Below, piece after piece: positions 2,335 through 13,459 of a DNA stretch of 13,459 nt (the first letter of the stretch is position 1; every line of letters begins with the position of its first letter). The notes below the pieces were generated by a model, which did no database searches, was not told the origin of the DNA, and worked only from the letters and a program-made list of their open reading frames with translations. Source of the stretch: a virus; UHGV virus genome UHGV-0077154. One strand, 5' to 3'. Made by a program: the position numbers and the translations under genes.

Positions 2335-3325
2335 TTCCACAACCTGCCCCGTAGGTGTCCCGGCTCTTTATCCTCCAAGTTTACATTCTCCTGTTGAAAA
2401 TATCCCCGGCTCTGTTGGTGATCTGCTAGACCGTCAGCCCAGGCCCTCGGTGAAAAGCGCTTTTCTTCGCCAAATATCGCTACGTTATGCCTTCAGCGAC
2501 ACGCCTCACTGCAACAAGCAGTGCAGTTACACAATGCTGCTTTGGGCTGAGGCAAGGGAGATAACTTGATGTTTTGAAGTGCCTCTGTTCACTAATTGTA
2601 CAACCATTTAACATATTGTATCTTATAAGTACTTGACTGGAATGGTCAGGTATTGCTTTTCGGAGCGTTGATGCGAAGCGGAGTACACAACAACGATTTG
2701 ATCAACAGAAGGAAAGCATTCGGGAGGATTTGAGGTGAGTTCTCTTGTTCAAGGATTTTGGATGAGTTTGTCCGGTCACCACACAATTTCAGGTTTCAGG
2801 CCTTTGAAGCTGCCAGCGCATCTAACACGATGAAAGAGCATTTTTCTCTTTATCAGCAGAAAAAGAGCTACTACGGCGACGTTACCACAACGGGGTGAAG
2901 AACTATCGTCACCTGGCGAAATTCTCCCGCCCTTGCAGGTCACGGATACGTACCTTTTCCCGCACCAGCGCAAGCCTTCTCACCAATAGCCCCGTATGCT
3001 CCACCAGAAGCGCTACAGCGCGTCATCTCCACACAATTGTAAACTACACACCCATAGCACAGCGCCCCGCTGAGAAGCTCTGACACGCCCAGAAATGGAT
3101 GGTTTTTCGTTGATTTTGCGAAGAAAATTAATTTTTTCGGTATGGAAGGGCGGATCGGTAAACTGGTTTGACACGCATTTGGTTGACATATTTAACGCAT
3201 CCAGCCCCTGCGCGGGTTCGTTGTGTATCCGATACCATAACGATCACCACACCACACAGGCGAGCCAGTGACAACAGACAGGATTTTCTAGCAATTAACC
3301 GCAATTAACAGGTATTAAAGCTCTA

Positions 3326-3697
3326 TTATTTCCCGCCGAAAATCCAACCGATGATGGCACCGATTATCGCAGAGCGGGTCTCACCTGCTGCTCCTTTGAG
3401 AACGTTAATAACTGCATCGCCTGCACCAGGTGCCTGCTGTTGAAGTAAATTCAAACCACGAGGTGTTAACTTGGCGGCGGTATCCATGTCGGTTGAAGAG
3501 ATTATCTCCGTGTAACCCATATCGCTGAGAGCCTGGAGTGTGTTGCAAAGCAGGTCAATCTGAGTTCTGTCTCCTCTGGGCTTCCAGCCGAAGTCTGAAA
3601 ATTCGAAAGAAGAGTAAGCCGGATAGTCCGCAAACAGTTTCACCAGGATTCCAGTTGCCATCTCGTTAAAGCTGTCTTTGCCTTGGACGAATTCCAT
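3326..3697 (-). CDS. Hypothetical protein (123 aa) with C-terminal Gly-rich hydrophobic tail (tail-anchored?)
   Basis: Good SD (AAAGGAAA, about 8 nt upstream of ATG on the minus strand). C-terminus SAIIGAIIGWIFGGK looks like a single TM/GxxxG segment. Transcribed divergently from the iteron/promoter control region. Confidence 0.6.
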   Translation of the reverse strand: MEFVQGKDSFNEMATGILVKLFADYPAYSSFEFSDFGWKPRGDRTQIDLLCNTLQALSDMGYTEIISSTDMDTAAKLTPRGLNLLQQQAPGAGDAVINVLKGAAGETRSAIIGAIIGWIFGGK

Positions 3698-3821
3698 AAT
3701 GTTTCCTTTTGTTCACTGATTGAACGAGGTTACTTACTTACCGCTGGAAGTGCCAGCAAGAAGGGATGACGCTGTGCTGTTAATCACTAGGTGAGGGGGT
3801 GTCTTCTACCAGAGGGGAGGC

Positions 3822-3916
3822 CATTGGTAAAGAATCTTAACTAACGTTAGTAAAGATCCTTAACCAGCCATTAGTAAAGAATCTTAACTAACCATTGGTA
3901 AAGATACTTAACCGTA
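3822..3916. repeat. Four tandem ~24-bp iterons (consensus about CATTG-GTAAAGA-ATCTTAAC), followed by an AT-rich stretch (3917-3970)
   Basis: GTAAAGA recurs at 3827, 3850, 3874 and 3898 (spacing 23/24/24 bp), with conserved flanks cattgGTAAAGAatcttaac. Downstream AT-rich DNA contains TAGATCA x2 and CTATATCA x2. Confidence 0.7.
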
Positions 3917-3985: not shown

Positions 3986-4001
3986 TTGAACATGCGTTCA
4001 A
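3986..4001. promoter_or_regulatory. Inverted repeat TTGAAC-ATGC-GTTCAA, operator-like
   Basis: 6-bp arms are exact reverse complements with a 4-bp spacer; located in the divergent control region. Confidence 0.35.
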
Positions 4002-4296
4002 TTGTTGGAGTTGTTAGGTGTTATGTAGACAGGCTTCGCCTGTTTACACTCTGTGTGGAAGACAAGCGCAAGCGCGTCAGTCCAATGTGGATCGAGCACG
4101 GCGCAGAGGAGCTTTAAACGCGACGTAACTCCCCCCTTGGAGGGGCGGCGCACCCCCCTCAACCCTGCGCTCTAACAACATCTCTAGAGTCCTCTATCGC
4201 GTTCTGAGCGTCTTTCTCTTATTGTTGGTGACTTTGTACCGTTCCGCTTACAGCGTTGAATCTGAAGCGTCTGAGAGCGTTTTGTGATTACGGGGC

Positions 4297-4410
4297 TTGA
4301 CAAAGAAAATGTATGTGTATAAGGTTGCGGGGTATTGACACAAAACATTTATATCTCTTTATTCATTAAATGAGTTATCGGTTGACAAAGAAACTAATTT
4401 ACTATAAAAT
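4297..4410 (+). promoter_or_regulatory. Three tandem TTGACA-containing repeats/promoters upstream of the rightward operon
   Basis: TTGACAAAGAAA at 4297-4308 and 4382-4393, TTGACACAAAAC at 4335-4346. The third has a good -10 (TAAAAT at 4405-4410, 17-bp spacer); the first has TATAAG at 4318-4323. All are oriented toward the CDS at 4469. Confidence 0.55.
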
Positions 4411-4468
4411 ATATATTATCAAATGAGATGATTTTATGACTAAACAATAACTTAAATAGGAGAGATAC

Positions 4469-4897
4469 ATGGGGAAACCTGTTCTGTTCGATTTCTCGAG
4501 CGCCACTGCCTCAGAGATTGTCGCTGCAATCGATGCAAAAATTACCACAGCTCAAAATCTGCACGCCTTCCGCACTCGTATGGGTGGTGCCAAGAAAGCC
4601 GATAAGCTCTATCCAGCTACTCGCGAAGCACTGAACATCATTAAACGCCTGCGTCAGCAAGCGAAAGACGCAAAAATCATCCGGGATATTCTTAAACCGT
4701 ACTCAGCAGAGTTGGCAAAAGGCCGTGATGTTATGGAAATCATTGAACCAGTGCTGTCTGCCTGGCGTGTCTATTACGCCTCTCATGGCATTGGTTTGAT
4801 GAATGAGCAGATCCTCCTGTTGAAAATGATTGAGGCGGGCGGTGAACTCGAAGGTATTACCGGAAAACCCATTCCCGAACTGACCACAACCGAATAA
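4469..4897 (+). CDS. Hypothetical protein (142 aa), first gene of rightward operon
   Basis: Strong SD AGGAGA with a 5-nt spacer to ATG; no family recognised. Confidence 0.7.
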   Translation: MGKPVLFDFSSATASEIVAAIDAKITTAQNLHAFRTRMGGAKKADKLYPATREALNIIKRLRQQAKDAKIIRDILKPYSAELAKGRDVMEIIEPVLSAWRVYYASHGIGLMNEQILLLKMIEAGGELEGITGKPIPELTTTE

Positions 4898-5072: not shown

Positions 5073-5264
5073 ATGATTGTGAAACTGTCACTAGACGATG
5101 AAACATATGCAATTTTACGCGAAGAATCTGACCGTTTGGGGATGCCAGTTCCGAGGATGATCCGGAACATGTGCCAGAACCTGGCGAAACACATTCAGAA
5201 ACGCAATGAACAACCACTGACGAACCCACAGGGAGAACAACATGACAGAGACAGTAGAAGCTAA
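5073..5264 (+). CDS. Ribbon-helix-helix-like small DNA-binding protein (~61-63 aa)
   Basis: IVKLSLDDETYAILREESDRLGMPVPRMIRNM fits the beta-strand plus two-helix pattern of CopG/Arc/MetJ-type RHH proteins. GGAG lies 8 nt upstream of GTG at 5079, which may be the true start rather than ATG at 5073. Confidence 0.55.
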   Translation: MIVKLSLDDETYAILREESDRLGMPVPRMIRNMCQNLAKHIQKRNEQPLTNPQGEQHDRDSRS

Positions 5265-10005: not shown

Positions 10006-11040
10006 ATGGGACTATCAACCAATTTCAGCTACGCGGATTACACCAACACCTTTGTGAACATGGATGCAAAGAACACTTTGCTGTCCACGCTTAATGTTTT
10101 CAGTGATCGTCAGACTTCTGCAAGTCCGAAGGTGAGCCTCGATATCATTGATGAAGTCGCTCAGAAGGTGGCAAGCTCTGTTAATCGTTACGGTTCAGAG
10201 TGGTCAACCATTCCTAAGCGTAGCGCTAGCAATCACCTGATTGAAGCTCCACTTTATGCTTTTCAAGACCGGATTACAGCGGCAGACGTGCAACCATATC
10301 GCAAACCAGGCTCCGACCTGCAAATGTCTGTAATGGATGCGGTCACTTCTTCTGCTGTCGCAATGCACGATAAGTACATGCGTACTAAAGAGAAAATTTT
10401 CGCTGACGCACTCTTCCGAAATACTGTCGAAGCGACCTACACCCAGCAGCCGATCATTTCCTGGGAAGATGAATTTGGATACCAACAGGCAACCGGAACG
10501 ATCAAAACCAGCGTTAGCTCTGGTGACCCACTTCGCAGCCTCGATGATGCAGTAACCGCTGCTAAAGTGCGCATGGGGGGCCTGGCTGGTCAGCTTGATG
10601 GATTTATCCTGTTTGCAGGTAGCAATGTTTATCGCGGCATTAAGTATCACCCTGATGTTCGTCAGAATGTTCAGTTCGGTGTGCTTGATCGGGATGTTCT
10701 GTTTAATAAAGAAGTGCTTCCGGCATTCTCAACATTCATCATTGAAAATGTTCGAGTGGTGGAGGTCACGGATCAGGCACTTTACGGAATTGGTCCGGAT
10801 GAATCCTTCCTGGTTCCACGTTTCAGCCGCCCACTGTCCTCTGATATTGCTCTACCTTTCGGTTATGTAGCAACGGCTACCAGCCGCAATCTTGATCTGG
10901 CATTTGCTGATCCGGTTGATTTCCGTATCTGGAGCGTACAGGACAAGTTTAAGAACGTGGAGCTATTCGCGGAAAGCTCAATCTTGCCTGTGGTGTACCG
11001 TCCGGATTTCGTTACAAAACTGACGAACGACGCAGCGTAA
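10006..11040 (+). CDS. Major capsid protein, lambda gpE-like family (344 aa)
   Basis: Strong SD AAGGAGAAG. Length 344 aa vs 341 for lambda E. C-terminal region ...VVYRPDFVTKLT resembles lambda E ...LADPDEFVSVQLA. Gene order decoration-then-capsid as in lambda. A hairpin at 11053-11074 (TGGGGC-N10-GCCCCA) follows the stop. Confidence 0.6.
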   Translation: MGLSTNFSYADYTNTFVNMDAKNTLLSTLNVFSDRQTSASPKVSLDIIDEVAQKVASSVNRYGSEWSTIPKRSASNHLIEAPLYAFQDRITAADVQPYRKPGSDLQMSVMDAVTSSAVAMHDKYMRTKEKIFADALFRNTVEATYTQQPIISWEDEFGYQQATGTIKTSVSSGDPLRSLDDAVTAAKVRMGGLAGQLDGFILFAGSNVYRGIKYHPDVRQNVQFGVLDRDVLFNKEVLPAFSTFIIENVRVVEVTDQALYGIGPDESFLVPRFSRPLSSDIALPFGYVATATSRNLDLAFADPVDFRIWSVQDKFKNVELFAESSILPVVYRPDFVTKLTNDAA

Positions 11041-12092: not shown

Positions 12093-12118
12093 AAAAAGGC
12101 GCAATAGCGCCTTTTTTT
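12093..12118. terminator. Bidirectional rho-independent terminator (AAAAAGGCGC-AATA-GCGCCTTTTTTT)
   Basis: Perfect GGCGC/GCGCC stem with a 4-nt loop, flanked by an A-run and a T-run; sits between the convergent cassette gene 2 and integrase 3' ends. Confidence 0.8.
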
Positions 12119-13313
12119 ACAAATCCGGATAACACGCCAACTCGACATACTCCGATAGTTCCTTCATCCCTGGCCCTTTGCTGTAGGTTCTGAATGCTTC
12201 GGTTTTCGCTTTTTGTTCGGTATGTCCAGTGATGGCTCCGATCCGTTGTTCTGGCACCCCTGCACGGTCTAAGCAGGTGATGAACATTCCCCGTAAGCTG
12301 TGAAAACATTGCCGATCTGTAGCGGTTGGCAATGTGCTGTCACGTAGCCGGGTAAACTTTTGGCTGTACCACGGACCCCGCTTACCATCCTTCCGAATGA
12401 TGTTATTAGACTGAGCCAGAAGATATTCACCGCTGTTATTTGCCAGATGCTTATCAACAATCCCCATCAGCAGCGAGTGGATCGGAACATACCGCACCCC
12501 GGCTACAGTCTTGGACTTGCTGACAAAGAAACATCTGACACCCTCCAACATTACAATTTCATCCCGCTTGATGCTGGCGATCTCATCAAGTCGCATTCCT
12601 GAATACAGCCCAATCAGTATGACATCGCGTAGAACGTCATCCGCTTCTCTGACAAGTGTTTGCAATTGTTCAGGTTCAAACGGCTGATAACTTTCTATCG
12701 TGCGACGTGCTTCGAGGTTATGACCGTGAAACGGGTTACTGTCGGGGATTGCGTCATATCGACGTTTGGCGAACTCGTACAGACTCCCTAAAGAGGTTAG
12801 CCAGTTTTGCACGGTCTGCGGTGCTGCCTTTTTCTGTTGGCCTTCAATGAAGTCTGTAACCGTTCTGCGTCCTATCTTGTTCAGACTAATATCAACTTTA
12901 CCGATACTCTGGAGAAATACTTCCACCGCTCGCGCGGATTTGCTGAGTGTGGAAAATGCCCGACGTTCACTATAAACCGTCATGTATTCATCACGGATGA
13001 CTGCCAACGTTGGGATAGGGGAGACTGCTACAGGCGTACTCTTGGCCTGTTTGATTGTGGTGTGGAGTGTGGTGATCGCATTCTGGATGCGAATGTCTTC
13101 CCGATCAGGATTCAACAGGGCTTTCAGATTGTTGAACTCAATCAACATGTGATTTCTGAAGTGACGAGCCTTAAGGATGTCTTTTGTCCCGGTGGATTTT
13201 CGCCAGGCTCGTTTGTTGTCAAACAGGTGACGCATGTACGCAGGTACAAAGACCTGAAAGATCCATACGCCCGAATGACTTTGAAAAAGATACTGATTGT
13301 TCTTGATAGACAT
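12117..13313 (-). CDS. int: Tyrosine recombinase / phage-type integrase (398 aa)
   Basis: C-terminal catalytic motifs: GMRLDEI (Arg box I), HSLRGMFITCLDRAGVPEQRIGAITGH (H-x-x-R box II), FRTYSKG (catalytic Tyr). SD AGAGGA about 8 nt upstream of ATG; gene lies next to attR. Confidence 0.9.
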   Translation of the reverse strand: MSIKNNQYLFQSHSGVWIFQVFVPAYMRHLFDNKRAWRKSTGTKDILKARHFRNHMLIEFNNLKALLNPDREDIRIQNAITTLHTTIKQAKSTPVAVSPIPTLAVIRDEYMTVYSERRAFSTLSKSARAVEVFLQSIGKVDISLNKIGRRTVTDFIEGQQKKAAPQTVQNWLTSLGSLYEFAKRRYDAIPDSNPFHGHNLEARRTIESYQPFEPEQLQTLVREADDVLRDVILIGLYSGMRLDEIASIKRDEIVMLEGVRCFFVSKSKTVAGVRYVPIHSLLMGIVDKHLANNSGEYLLAQSNNIIRKDGKRGPWYSQKFTRLRDSTLPTATDRQCFHSLRGMFITCLDRAGVPEQRIGAITGHTEQKAKTEAFRTYSKGPGMKELSEYVELACYPDL

Positions 13314-13375: not shown

Positions 13376-13459
13376 AACGAGAGCTTCCCAAGCTCTATAC
13401 GAGGGTTCGATTCCCTTCGCCCGCTCCAGTCTCCTCATAAATTAACAAGTTATAATTTA
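13376..13459. repeat. attR: partial tRNA-Gly 3' copy (60 bp perfect to 13435) plus imperfect extension to the window end
   Basis: Identical to 2-61; the sequence upstream (caatgtcgggatggagt) does not match the tRNA 5' half, so this is the truncated copy. Confidence 0.8.

Follow-up and report, generated by a model that had tools for sequence, protein, structure and literature searches.

The region in front of the main rightward operon of a satellite-like island is probably the control region of that operon, with two co-oriented sigma-70 promoters lying 85 bp apart. The window analysed here is the whole stretch of 13,459 nucleotides that contains the island. In the proposed arrangement the distal promoter, P1, would be TTGACA-17-TAAGGT with a start near 4332, and the proximal promoter, P3, would be TTGACA-17-TAAAAT, close to consensus, with a start near 4417. 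Both would transcribe one operon coding for a 142-aa protein, a ribbon-helix-helix-like protein, a DUF6945 initiator-like protein, a 715-aa protein and a capsid protein of the lambda gpE type. A third box, P2, would not form a complete promoter and would sit over the predicted P1 start, and the bases that lengthen the hexamers to 12-mers would be spacer, alike in copies 1 and 3 in this sublineage only. Repression of P3 would most plausibly act via the AAATGAG/CTAATTT/AAATGAG motifs that lie around its -35 and start. The sequence features, with their conservation and spacing, are direct observations on the window and its relatives; that the promoters are active, where they start, what the operators do and which regulator might act on them we infer from these.

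Three TTGACA boxes and two probable tandem promoters

4297-4308, + strand: box 1, copy 1 of the 12-mer, TTGACAAAGAAA, 172 bp upstream of the ATG at 4469
4335-4346, + strand: box 2, copy 2, TTGACACAAAAC, 134 bp upstream of the same ATG
4382-4393, + strand: box 3, copy 3, TTGACAAAGAAA, 87 bp upstream of the same ATG

The sequence-only reading had described three stacked copies of a 12-mer, two of them identical, in front of the rightward operon, and this description proved accurate. Exact matches of TTGACAMARAAM number three, all on the + strand and at the three box positions (4297, 4335 and 4382), the identical copies are 1 and 3 (both TTGACAAAGAAA), and all boxes face the first + strand gene, which starts with the ATG at 4469. 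With at most one mismatch allowed, the degenerate 12-mer occurs six times in the window against 0.88 expected, a count reached in 0 of 200 shuffles, and the TTGACA hexamer alone is not enriched (13 found versus 10 expected). Three TTGACA on the same strand within 100 bp appeared in 5 of 600 first-order Markov simulations, and a chance origin of the three-hexamer cluster is unlikely. TTGACA boxes are also carried by related islands in E. coli and in metagenomes.

As -35 elements all three boxes are perfect (6/6 to TTGACA), and position 4410, where the stretch singled out by the sequence-only reading ends, is the final base of the -10 hexamer behind copy 3. For comparison, the sequence upstream of the gene for the 142-aa protein homologue was taken from 46 of 48 loci, which together with the window gave 38 distinct regions. 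These fall into four groups: A, alignable with the window; B, with a different upstream sequence; C, Rahnella-like; and D, distant and Winslowiella-like. The group A footprint was built from 12 distinct sequences, and the window's own subgroup within group A comprises L001, L011-L014 and L018.

4297..4302, + strand: P1 -35, TTGACA; 6 of 6 columns invariant in 12 of 12 group A sequences, also found in group C and in L004, L030 and L032
4320..4325, + strand: P1 -10, TAAGGT, 17 bp after the -35; 5 of 6 columns invariant in group A (TAAnGT)
4382..4387, + strand: P3 -35, TTGACA; 6 of 6 columns invariant in 12 of 12 group A sequences
4405..4410, + strand: P3 -10, TAAAAT, 17 bp after the -35; 4 of 6 columns invariant in group A (TAAnnT)

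The spacer and flank segments in group A hold 0-2 invariant columns each, and the proximal hexamer is exactly TTGACA in 30 of the 38 distinct upstream regions, the window included. P3 (TTGACA-17-TAAAAT) is the top sigma-70 match of the whole window (11/12) and the only site to pass a strict scan, and P1 combines a perfect -35 with a -10 that has the key T1, A2 and T6. A hexamer with A2 and T6 located 16-18 bp downstream is present behind both P1 and P3, and the T1, A2 and T6 columns are invariant. Agreement with the consensus does not say much on its own, since a simple promoter scan of the whole window gave as many sites (17) as shuffled sequence (17.8).

The footprint in group A, together with the recurrence of the promoter pair across the family, argues for two tandem sigma-70 promoters, P1 and P3, whose -35 elements would be boxes 1 and 3. 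The spacing between P1 and P3 is 85 bp in group A, and in group B a pair of ATGACA-18-AATTAT and TTGACA-17-CATAAT lies 85 bp apart in nearly all loci, with DNA between the promoters that is unalignable with group A. The spacing is 76 bp in most of group C and 31 bp in two group-D loci. In group C the P1 -10 reads TATATT, TACATT or TAAGTT, with T1, A2, T6 and the 17-bp spacing kept; because this element changes in sequence yet stays TAnnnT at 17 bp, it follows the pattern of a promoter and not that of a sequence-specific protein site. The P3 -10 is TAAACT in group C and CATAAT in group B.

Other kinds of site were considered around the boxes. A lambda CII-type site would have a direct TTGC-N6-TTGC repeat on either side of the -35, and on inspection of the sequence none of the boxes has a further TTGC or TTGA at a distance of 10 bp. 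A sigma-54 reading of the TGGCA-N-TGCCA found upstream of P1 in group C was rejected, the GG-to-GC spacing being 10 bp and not 12. Immediately upstream of P1, within 4200-4296, GAGCGT/AGCGTCT motifs are repeated (CTGAGCGTCT and GAAGCGTCTGAGAGCGTTTTG), and group-C relatives have related ACAGAGCG repeats and an invariant GCGTTT.

The middle box and the 12-mer extension

4335..4340, + strand: P2, TTGACA, a -35-like box; TGAC core invariant in 12 of 12 group A loci

The sequence-only reading had also proposed that the boxes are triple tandem promoters. This held for boxes 1 and 3, with their invariant -35 and conserved TAnnnT 17 bp on, and failed for box 2. The hexamer 17 bp after P2 (4358-4363) is TTTATT, in which A2 is missing and only one of six columns is invariant, and no hexamer with both A2 and T6 was found 16-18 bp behind the box. 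The A at position 2 is the most critical -10 base of sigma-70 promoters. Lacking a usable -10, P2 is an incomplete promoter. A known triple array is that of phage T7, in which the early promoters A1, A2 and A3 are all complete and mapped, in a virulent phage in which repression is not needed. An array of this type, with every repeat a conserved complete promoter, was not found here, as two of three repeats are complete, and the relatives have two complete promoters and 0-2 bare TTGAC boxes. It is rather unlikely that the boxes are three independent functional sigma-70 promoters, combined to give very strong expression in the way that virulent phages arrange their early regions. Three perfect TTGACA on one strand in 91 bp, a cluster rare by chance, would fit such a stack, as would the invariance of the P2 TGAC core in 12 loci and the good -10 (TATATT) behind the P2 box of L002. 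However, the window has TTTATT at this place and no alternative -10 at 16-18 bp, and in L002 and L019 the P2 -35 itself is ATGACA within a palindrome.

P2 begins 10 bp past the end of the P1 -10 and would thus cover the predicted P1 start, and it sits about 82 bp upstream of the predicted P3 start. The box varies as ATGACA in L002 and L019 and as TTGACG in L017. Three relatives, L002, L019 and L033, have a palindrome (TGACAATTGTCA, GTGATGACAATCATCAC and GTGTTGACAGTTAACAC, respectively) whose centre falls no more than 2 bp from the P2 position and which scores highest in the 200-bp region (7/8), and in L016 and L017 the palindrome at this position is moderate. No palindrome above background was found at the P2 position in the window's subgroup. 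A strong palindrome at this place in three relatives looks like an operator over the P1 start there, and in some relatives the P2 position is most likely the binding site of a regulator, as judged from these dyads. The P2 of the window may be a relic or decayed remnant of such a site, a weak site or a weak auxiliary contact for RNA polymerase.

Most group-C loci have two TTGAC boxes without a -10, and the recurrence of bare boxes hints at a function that the two-promoter model leaves unexplained. One suggestion is that the bare TTGAC boxes are sites for a dedicated regulator, or capture sites for RNA polymerase; P1 and P3 would then share the motif because this regulator competes with or mimics sigma region 4. 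TTGAC boxes without a -10 recur in two mutually unalignable subgroups, the distance from the P2-like box to the P3 -35 is similar among them (47 bp in group A, 49 bp in five of six group-C loci, 40 bp in L039), and the box lies within strong palindromes in three relatives, all of which would agree with this suggestion. We nevertheless give it a low probability, as the palindromes differ in sequence and none is present in the window, no candidate regulator co-varies with the palindromes, and promoter-like hexamers arise easily in AT-rich regulatory DNA.

4303..4308, + strand: AAGAAA, extension of copy 1 (positions 7-12 of the 12-mer), part of the P1 spacer; 1 of 6 columns invariant
4388..4393, + strand: AAGAAA, extension of copy 3, part of the P3 spacer; 1 of 6 columns invariant

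The repeated 12-mer could also be a binding site in itself. According to the sequence-only reading, TTGACA(A/C)A(G/A)AA(A/C) might be a repeated site for an activator or repressor, possibly a helper-encoded factor, with a -35-like motif as its target. Over 12 nt, copies 1 and 3 are indeed identical, and both are preceded by GG, and this identity is kept in L001, L011-L014 and L018. The comparison of relatives spoke against the proposal, and we regard it as very unlikely. Positions 7-12 have one invariant column of six at each copy, and only the A at position 7 is conserved. The copy 1 extension in relatives is purine-rich and variable (AAGGAA, ATGGAA, AGGGGA, AGAGAG, AAGGGG), and the copy 3 extension in the other group-A loci is ATCATC, ATCATT or AATTAA. 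Within single loci the two extensions disagree:

L016: copy 1 ATGGAA, copy 3 ATCATC
L017: copy 1 AAGGAA, copy 3 ATCATT
L002: copy 1 AGGGGA, copy 3 AATTAA
L019: copy 1 AGAGAG, copy 3 AATTAA
L033: copy 1 AAGGGG, copy 3 ATCATT
L006: copy 1 ATCGGT, copy 3 AATTAA

The AAGAAA/AAGAAA identity of copies 1 and 3 is thus seen only in the window's subgroup, and the two extensions are discordant in every relative outside it. They differ at 4-5 of six positions in the five group-A loci outside the subgroup and in the six group-C loci with P1 and P3, which indicates that the copies do not evolve in concert. A repeated operator or an iteron, with the 12-mer conserved at each copy and the copies changing together, was not seen, and extensions that are both variable and discordant argue that the 12-mer is not a recognition unit. 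In addition, the copies follow one another at 38 and 47 bp, neither of which makes a whole number of helical turns, and a fourth TGACAAAGAAAC inside the integrase gene (12521) is at about chance level. The exact 12/12 identity of copies 1 and 3, otherwise unexplained, would come from chance in an A-rich spacer or from a short conversion patch.

A candidate operator around P3

4368..4374, + strand: AAATGAG, upstream repeat, candidate operator half-site; 5 of 7 columns invariant in group A
4394..4400, + strand: CTAATTT, inverted AAATGAG partner inside the P3 spacer; conserved in group A
4421..4427, + strand: AAATGAG, downstream repeat, at about +4 to +11 of the predicted P3 start; 6 of 7 columns invariant
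4428..4468, + strand: conserved leader; 25 of 41 columns invariant, mean majority fraction 0.95, in group A
4458-4462, + strand: Shine-Dalgarno AGGAG, within the leader and before the ATG at 4469

While the 12-mer is unlikely to be a protein site, the region is likely to be regulated by a DNA-binding protein through other motifs. AAATGAG occurs only twice in the 13.4-kb window, and the two copies flank P3 and are 53 bp apart, the upstream one ending 7 bp before the P3 -35. The counterpart of CTAATTT is CTCATTT in most relatives and TCTCATAT in group C. In the relatives AAATGAG pairs with CTCATTT across the P3 -35, with arms that become longer and co-vary (AATGAGAAT/ATTCTCATT in L017, AATGAGAGTG/CACTCTCATT in L041 and TGAGA/TCTCA in group C). 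The AAATGAG/CTAATTT motifs are conserved in groups A and C, and the set AAATGAG/CTAATTT/AAATGAG is most likely the P3 operator, a candidate suggested by its position and co-variation.

As both this dyad and the P2 palindrome of the relatives lie inside the predicted P1 transcript, they might instead act as RNA, forming hairpins that attenuate or stabilise the P1 transcript. Compensatory changes in the arms of both dyads among relatives would be expected from such hairpins, and the group C leader contains a further hairpin that co-varies. In the window, however, the P1 leader has no significant RNA structure (z = -0.17 versus shuffles) and its minimum-free-energy structure lacks these hairpins; the AAATGAG/CTAATTT dyad would have a 19-nt loop, an arm mismatch and no U-tract after it, and the promoter region has no Rfam match at the gathering threshold or at E <= 1. 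An action as RNA is highly improbable, and the P3 operator remains the preferred reading of the motifs.

No protein that could read this operator was singled out by the comparison. Among the relatives, none of the 123-aa, 142-aa and 63-aa proteins tracks the variants of the operator or promoter motifs, and since no element-encoded protein does so, the proposed repressor is hypothetical. The divergent gene for the 123-aa protein is missing in many relatives, independently of promoter type, and its product has a poor single-sequence model (pLDDT 49) and no family match. The 63-aa ribbon-helix-helix-like protein may be a DNA-binding regulator; in L001 an unrelated gene of the same size is found in its place. 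It is a distinctly unlikely reading that the bare TTGAC boxes and the AAATGAG repeats together make up a switch whose reader is encoded elsewhere than beside it. Such a reader could come from a helper phage or from the host, and would compete with sigma region 4, or take its place, at -35-like sites. If this were true, the stacked boxes would be the induction sensor of an undescribed family of capsid-encoding satellite-like islands of Enterobacterales.

The leader is conserved beyond the need of a plain untranslated leader, and a three-codon mini-ORF (ATG ATT TTA TGA) lies in this region at 4425-4436. An antisense promoter, TAGTCA-16-GATAAT (4442-4415), was rejected as the cause of the leader conservation, its -35 not being conserved in L001.

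The island and its likeness to known systems

2-61 and 13376-13435: direct repeat of at least 60 bp bounding the island, formed by the 3' part of tRNA-Gly(CCC) and downstream bases
622-1257: PD-T7-4 anti-phage cargo gene, next to the left attachment repeat; full-length match, E = 4e-98
4469 to about 11325, + strand: rightward gene string of about 7 kb
4469..4897, + strand: first operon gene, coding for a 142-aa all-helical protein with 119 homologues
5073-5264, + strand: second operon gene, coding for a 63-aa protein (MIVKLSLDDETYAILREESDRLGMPVPRMIRNM...); weak RHH_1 match, E = 0.007, below the cut-off
10006-11040, + strand: lambda gpE-type major capsid protein; Pfam Phage_cap_E, E = 5e-14
12117-13313, - strand: tyrosine integrase

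The window is a 13.4-kb island integrated at tRNA-Gly, and it begins with the 3' part of the tRNA-Gly(CCC) gene; the bounding repeats give an element of about 13.37 kb. The contigs on which several homologues lie were assembled at 12.8-13.8 kb, although L005 (13,766 bp) is integrated and has the same tRNA-Gly sequence at its flanks. Islands of related type are found in E. coli at several sites (tRNA-Thr, rcnR and tRNA-Gly neighbourhoods), one carrier being strain 2016C-3878 (NZ_CP029747, island at 684-697 kb), and further in Klebsiella, Enterobacter, Citrobacter, Rahnella, Winslowiella and gut metagenomes. The homologues of the 142-aa protein that carry names are all from Enterobacterales, and the protein has a confident model (pLDDT 88) and no fold match. 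The DUF6945 replication-initiator-like protein has weak initiator PHROG matches, and the DUF6945 annotation is that of its homologue in E. coli islands of the related type; the 715-aa protein has only weak tape-measure-like PHROG matches. The capsid protein had no tblastn match at 1e-5 among 50,697 phage records. Of a head module the island shows Phage_cap_E only, and a portal, protease, small terminase or head-tail connector could not be recognised. Homologues of PD-T7-4 often adjoin an integrase according to a defence-screen preprint. Neither the island family nor DUF6945 was described in the literature that we searched.

The island also has conserved non-coding stretches apart from the promoters. 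A GC-rich block at 4000-4200 (core 4052-4162) is kept in 24-28 of 48 loci, versus 16 for the 123-aa gene, and its core is almost invariant (GGAGCTTTAAACGCGACGTAACTCCCCCCTTGGAGGGGCGGCGCnCCCCCCTCA). Within the block lies GGGCGGCG, with which the lambda cohesive end begins, as well as a small hairpin whose stem shows compensatory changes (GACTGC-GAT-GCAGTC versus GGCTTC-GAT-GAAGCC). Searches with the block gave no Rfam match and no phage blastn match, and it has no significant overall fold (z = -0.6 and -0.7 on the two strands). The block might serve in packaging, for instance as cos, or as a cis element of another kind, and GGGGCGGCGC (4141-4150) may be a candidate cos cleavage site. A second conserved stretch, at 2900-3300, has no convincing ORF and a match in 18-24 of 48 loci; the ORFs in the 1 kb at 2340-3326 are all at most 65 aa, and in many relatives no ORF exceeds 55 aa over 1-2 kb ahead of the promoter region. 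At 3820-3916 a sequence of about 26 nt is repeated directly four times, 23-24 bp apart (GCCATTGGTAAAGAATCTTAACTAAC, with variants). In the E. coli relative L001 the equivalent place is taken by another set of repeats, of the CATCGGTAACGG type, and the DUF6945 protein of L001 is also divergent. These repeats look like iterons of a replication origin that is exchanged along with its initiator.

By analogy with known systems, the layout seems familiar in principle, with tandem promoters and interleaved likely operators before an early operon. Like T7 A1-A3, the region has co-oriented host sigma-70 promoters with TTGAC-type -35 elements within a few hundred bp before the first operon. In contrast to T7, only two of the three boxes have a -10, and putative operator repeats are interleaved with them. 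Being integrated, the island presumably has to be kept silent, unlike the virulent T7. In the satellite P4, the left operon is transcribed from PLE and PLL, about 400 bp apart, one promoter being early and the other under separate control; PLL needs Delta/Ogr-type activators that bind a dyad near -55, and P4 immunity is RNA-based. The island resembles P4 as an enterobacterial satellite-type island with tandem promoters on one replication and regulatory operon, but none of the spacing of about 400 bp, the Delta/Ogr-type dyad activation or the RNA-based immunity was found here. The P4 core genes (alpha primase-helicase, Sid, Delta, Psu and Epsilon) gave no Pfam, PHROG or NCBIfam matches among the proteins searched.

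The overlap of dyad or repeated sites with the -35 and start of a strong promoter is shared with lambdoid/P22-type and lac-type operators, and the palindrome over the P1 start in relatives resembles lac-type operators located over the start. Unlike in the lambdoid/P22 type, no cI/Cro-type gene adjoins the region, and the half-sites are about 25 bp apart instead of forming 17-bp operators. With capsid-forming PICIs and phage satellites (PMC10085698; bioRxiv 10.1101/2022.09.08.507074) the window shares an island of about 13 kb integrated at a tRNA gene, with an integrase and a replication module, as well as its own capsid protein and an anti-phage cargo gene, here PD-T7-4. A full head module of the capsid-forming PICI kind was not found, as only the major capsid protein is recognisable. 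The layout is satellite-like, and the gene sets of P4, PICI and cf-PICI do not fit.

Taken alone, the regulatory layout is ordinary. It seems, however, that the region marks the control point of a widespread, apparently uncharacterised family of 13-kb islands, hosted by E. coli, Klebsiella, Enterobacter, Citrobacter and their relatives. These islands bring their own lambda gpE-type capsid gene, and this copy brings also an anti-phage gene. Sorting the conserved promoters from the candidate operators would guide the choice of mutations towards finding the induction signal and the helper.
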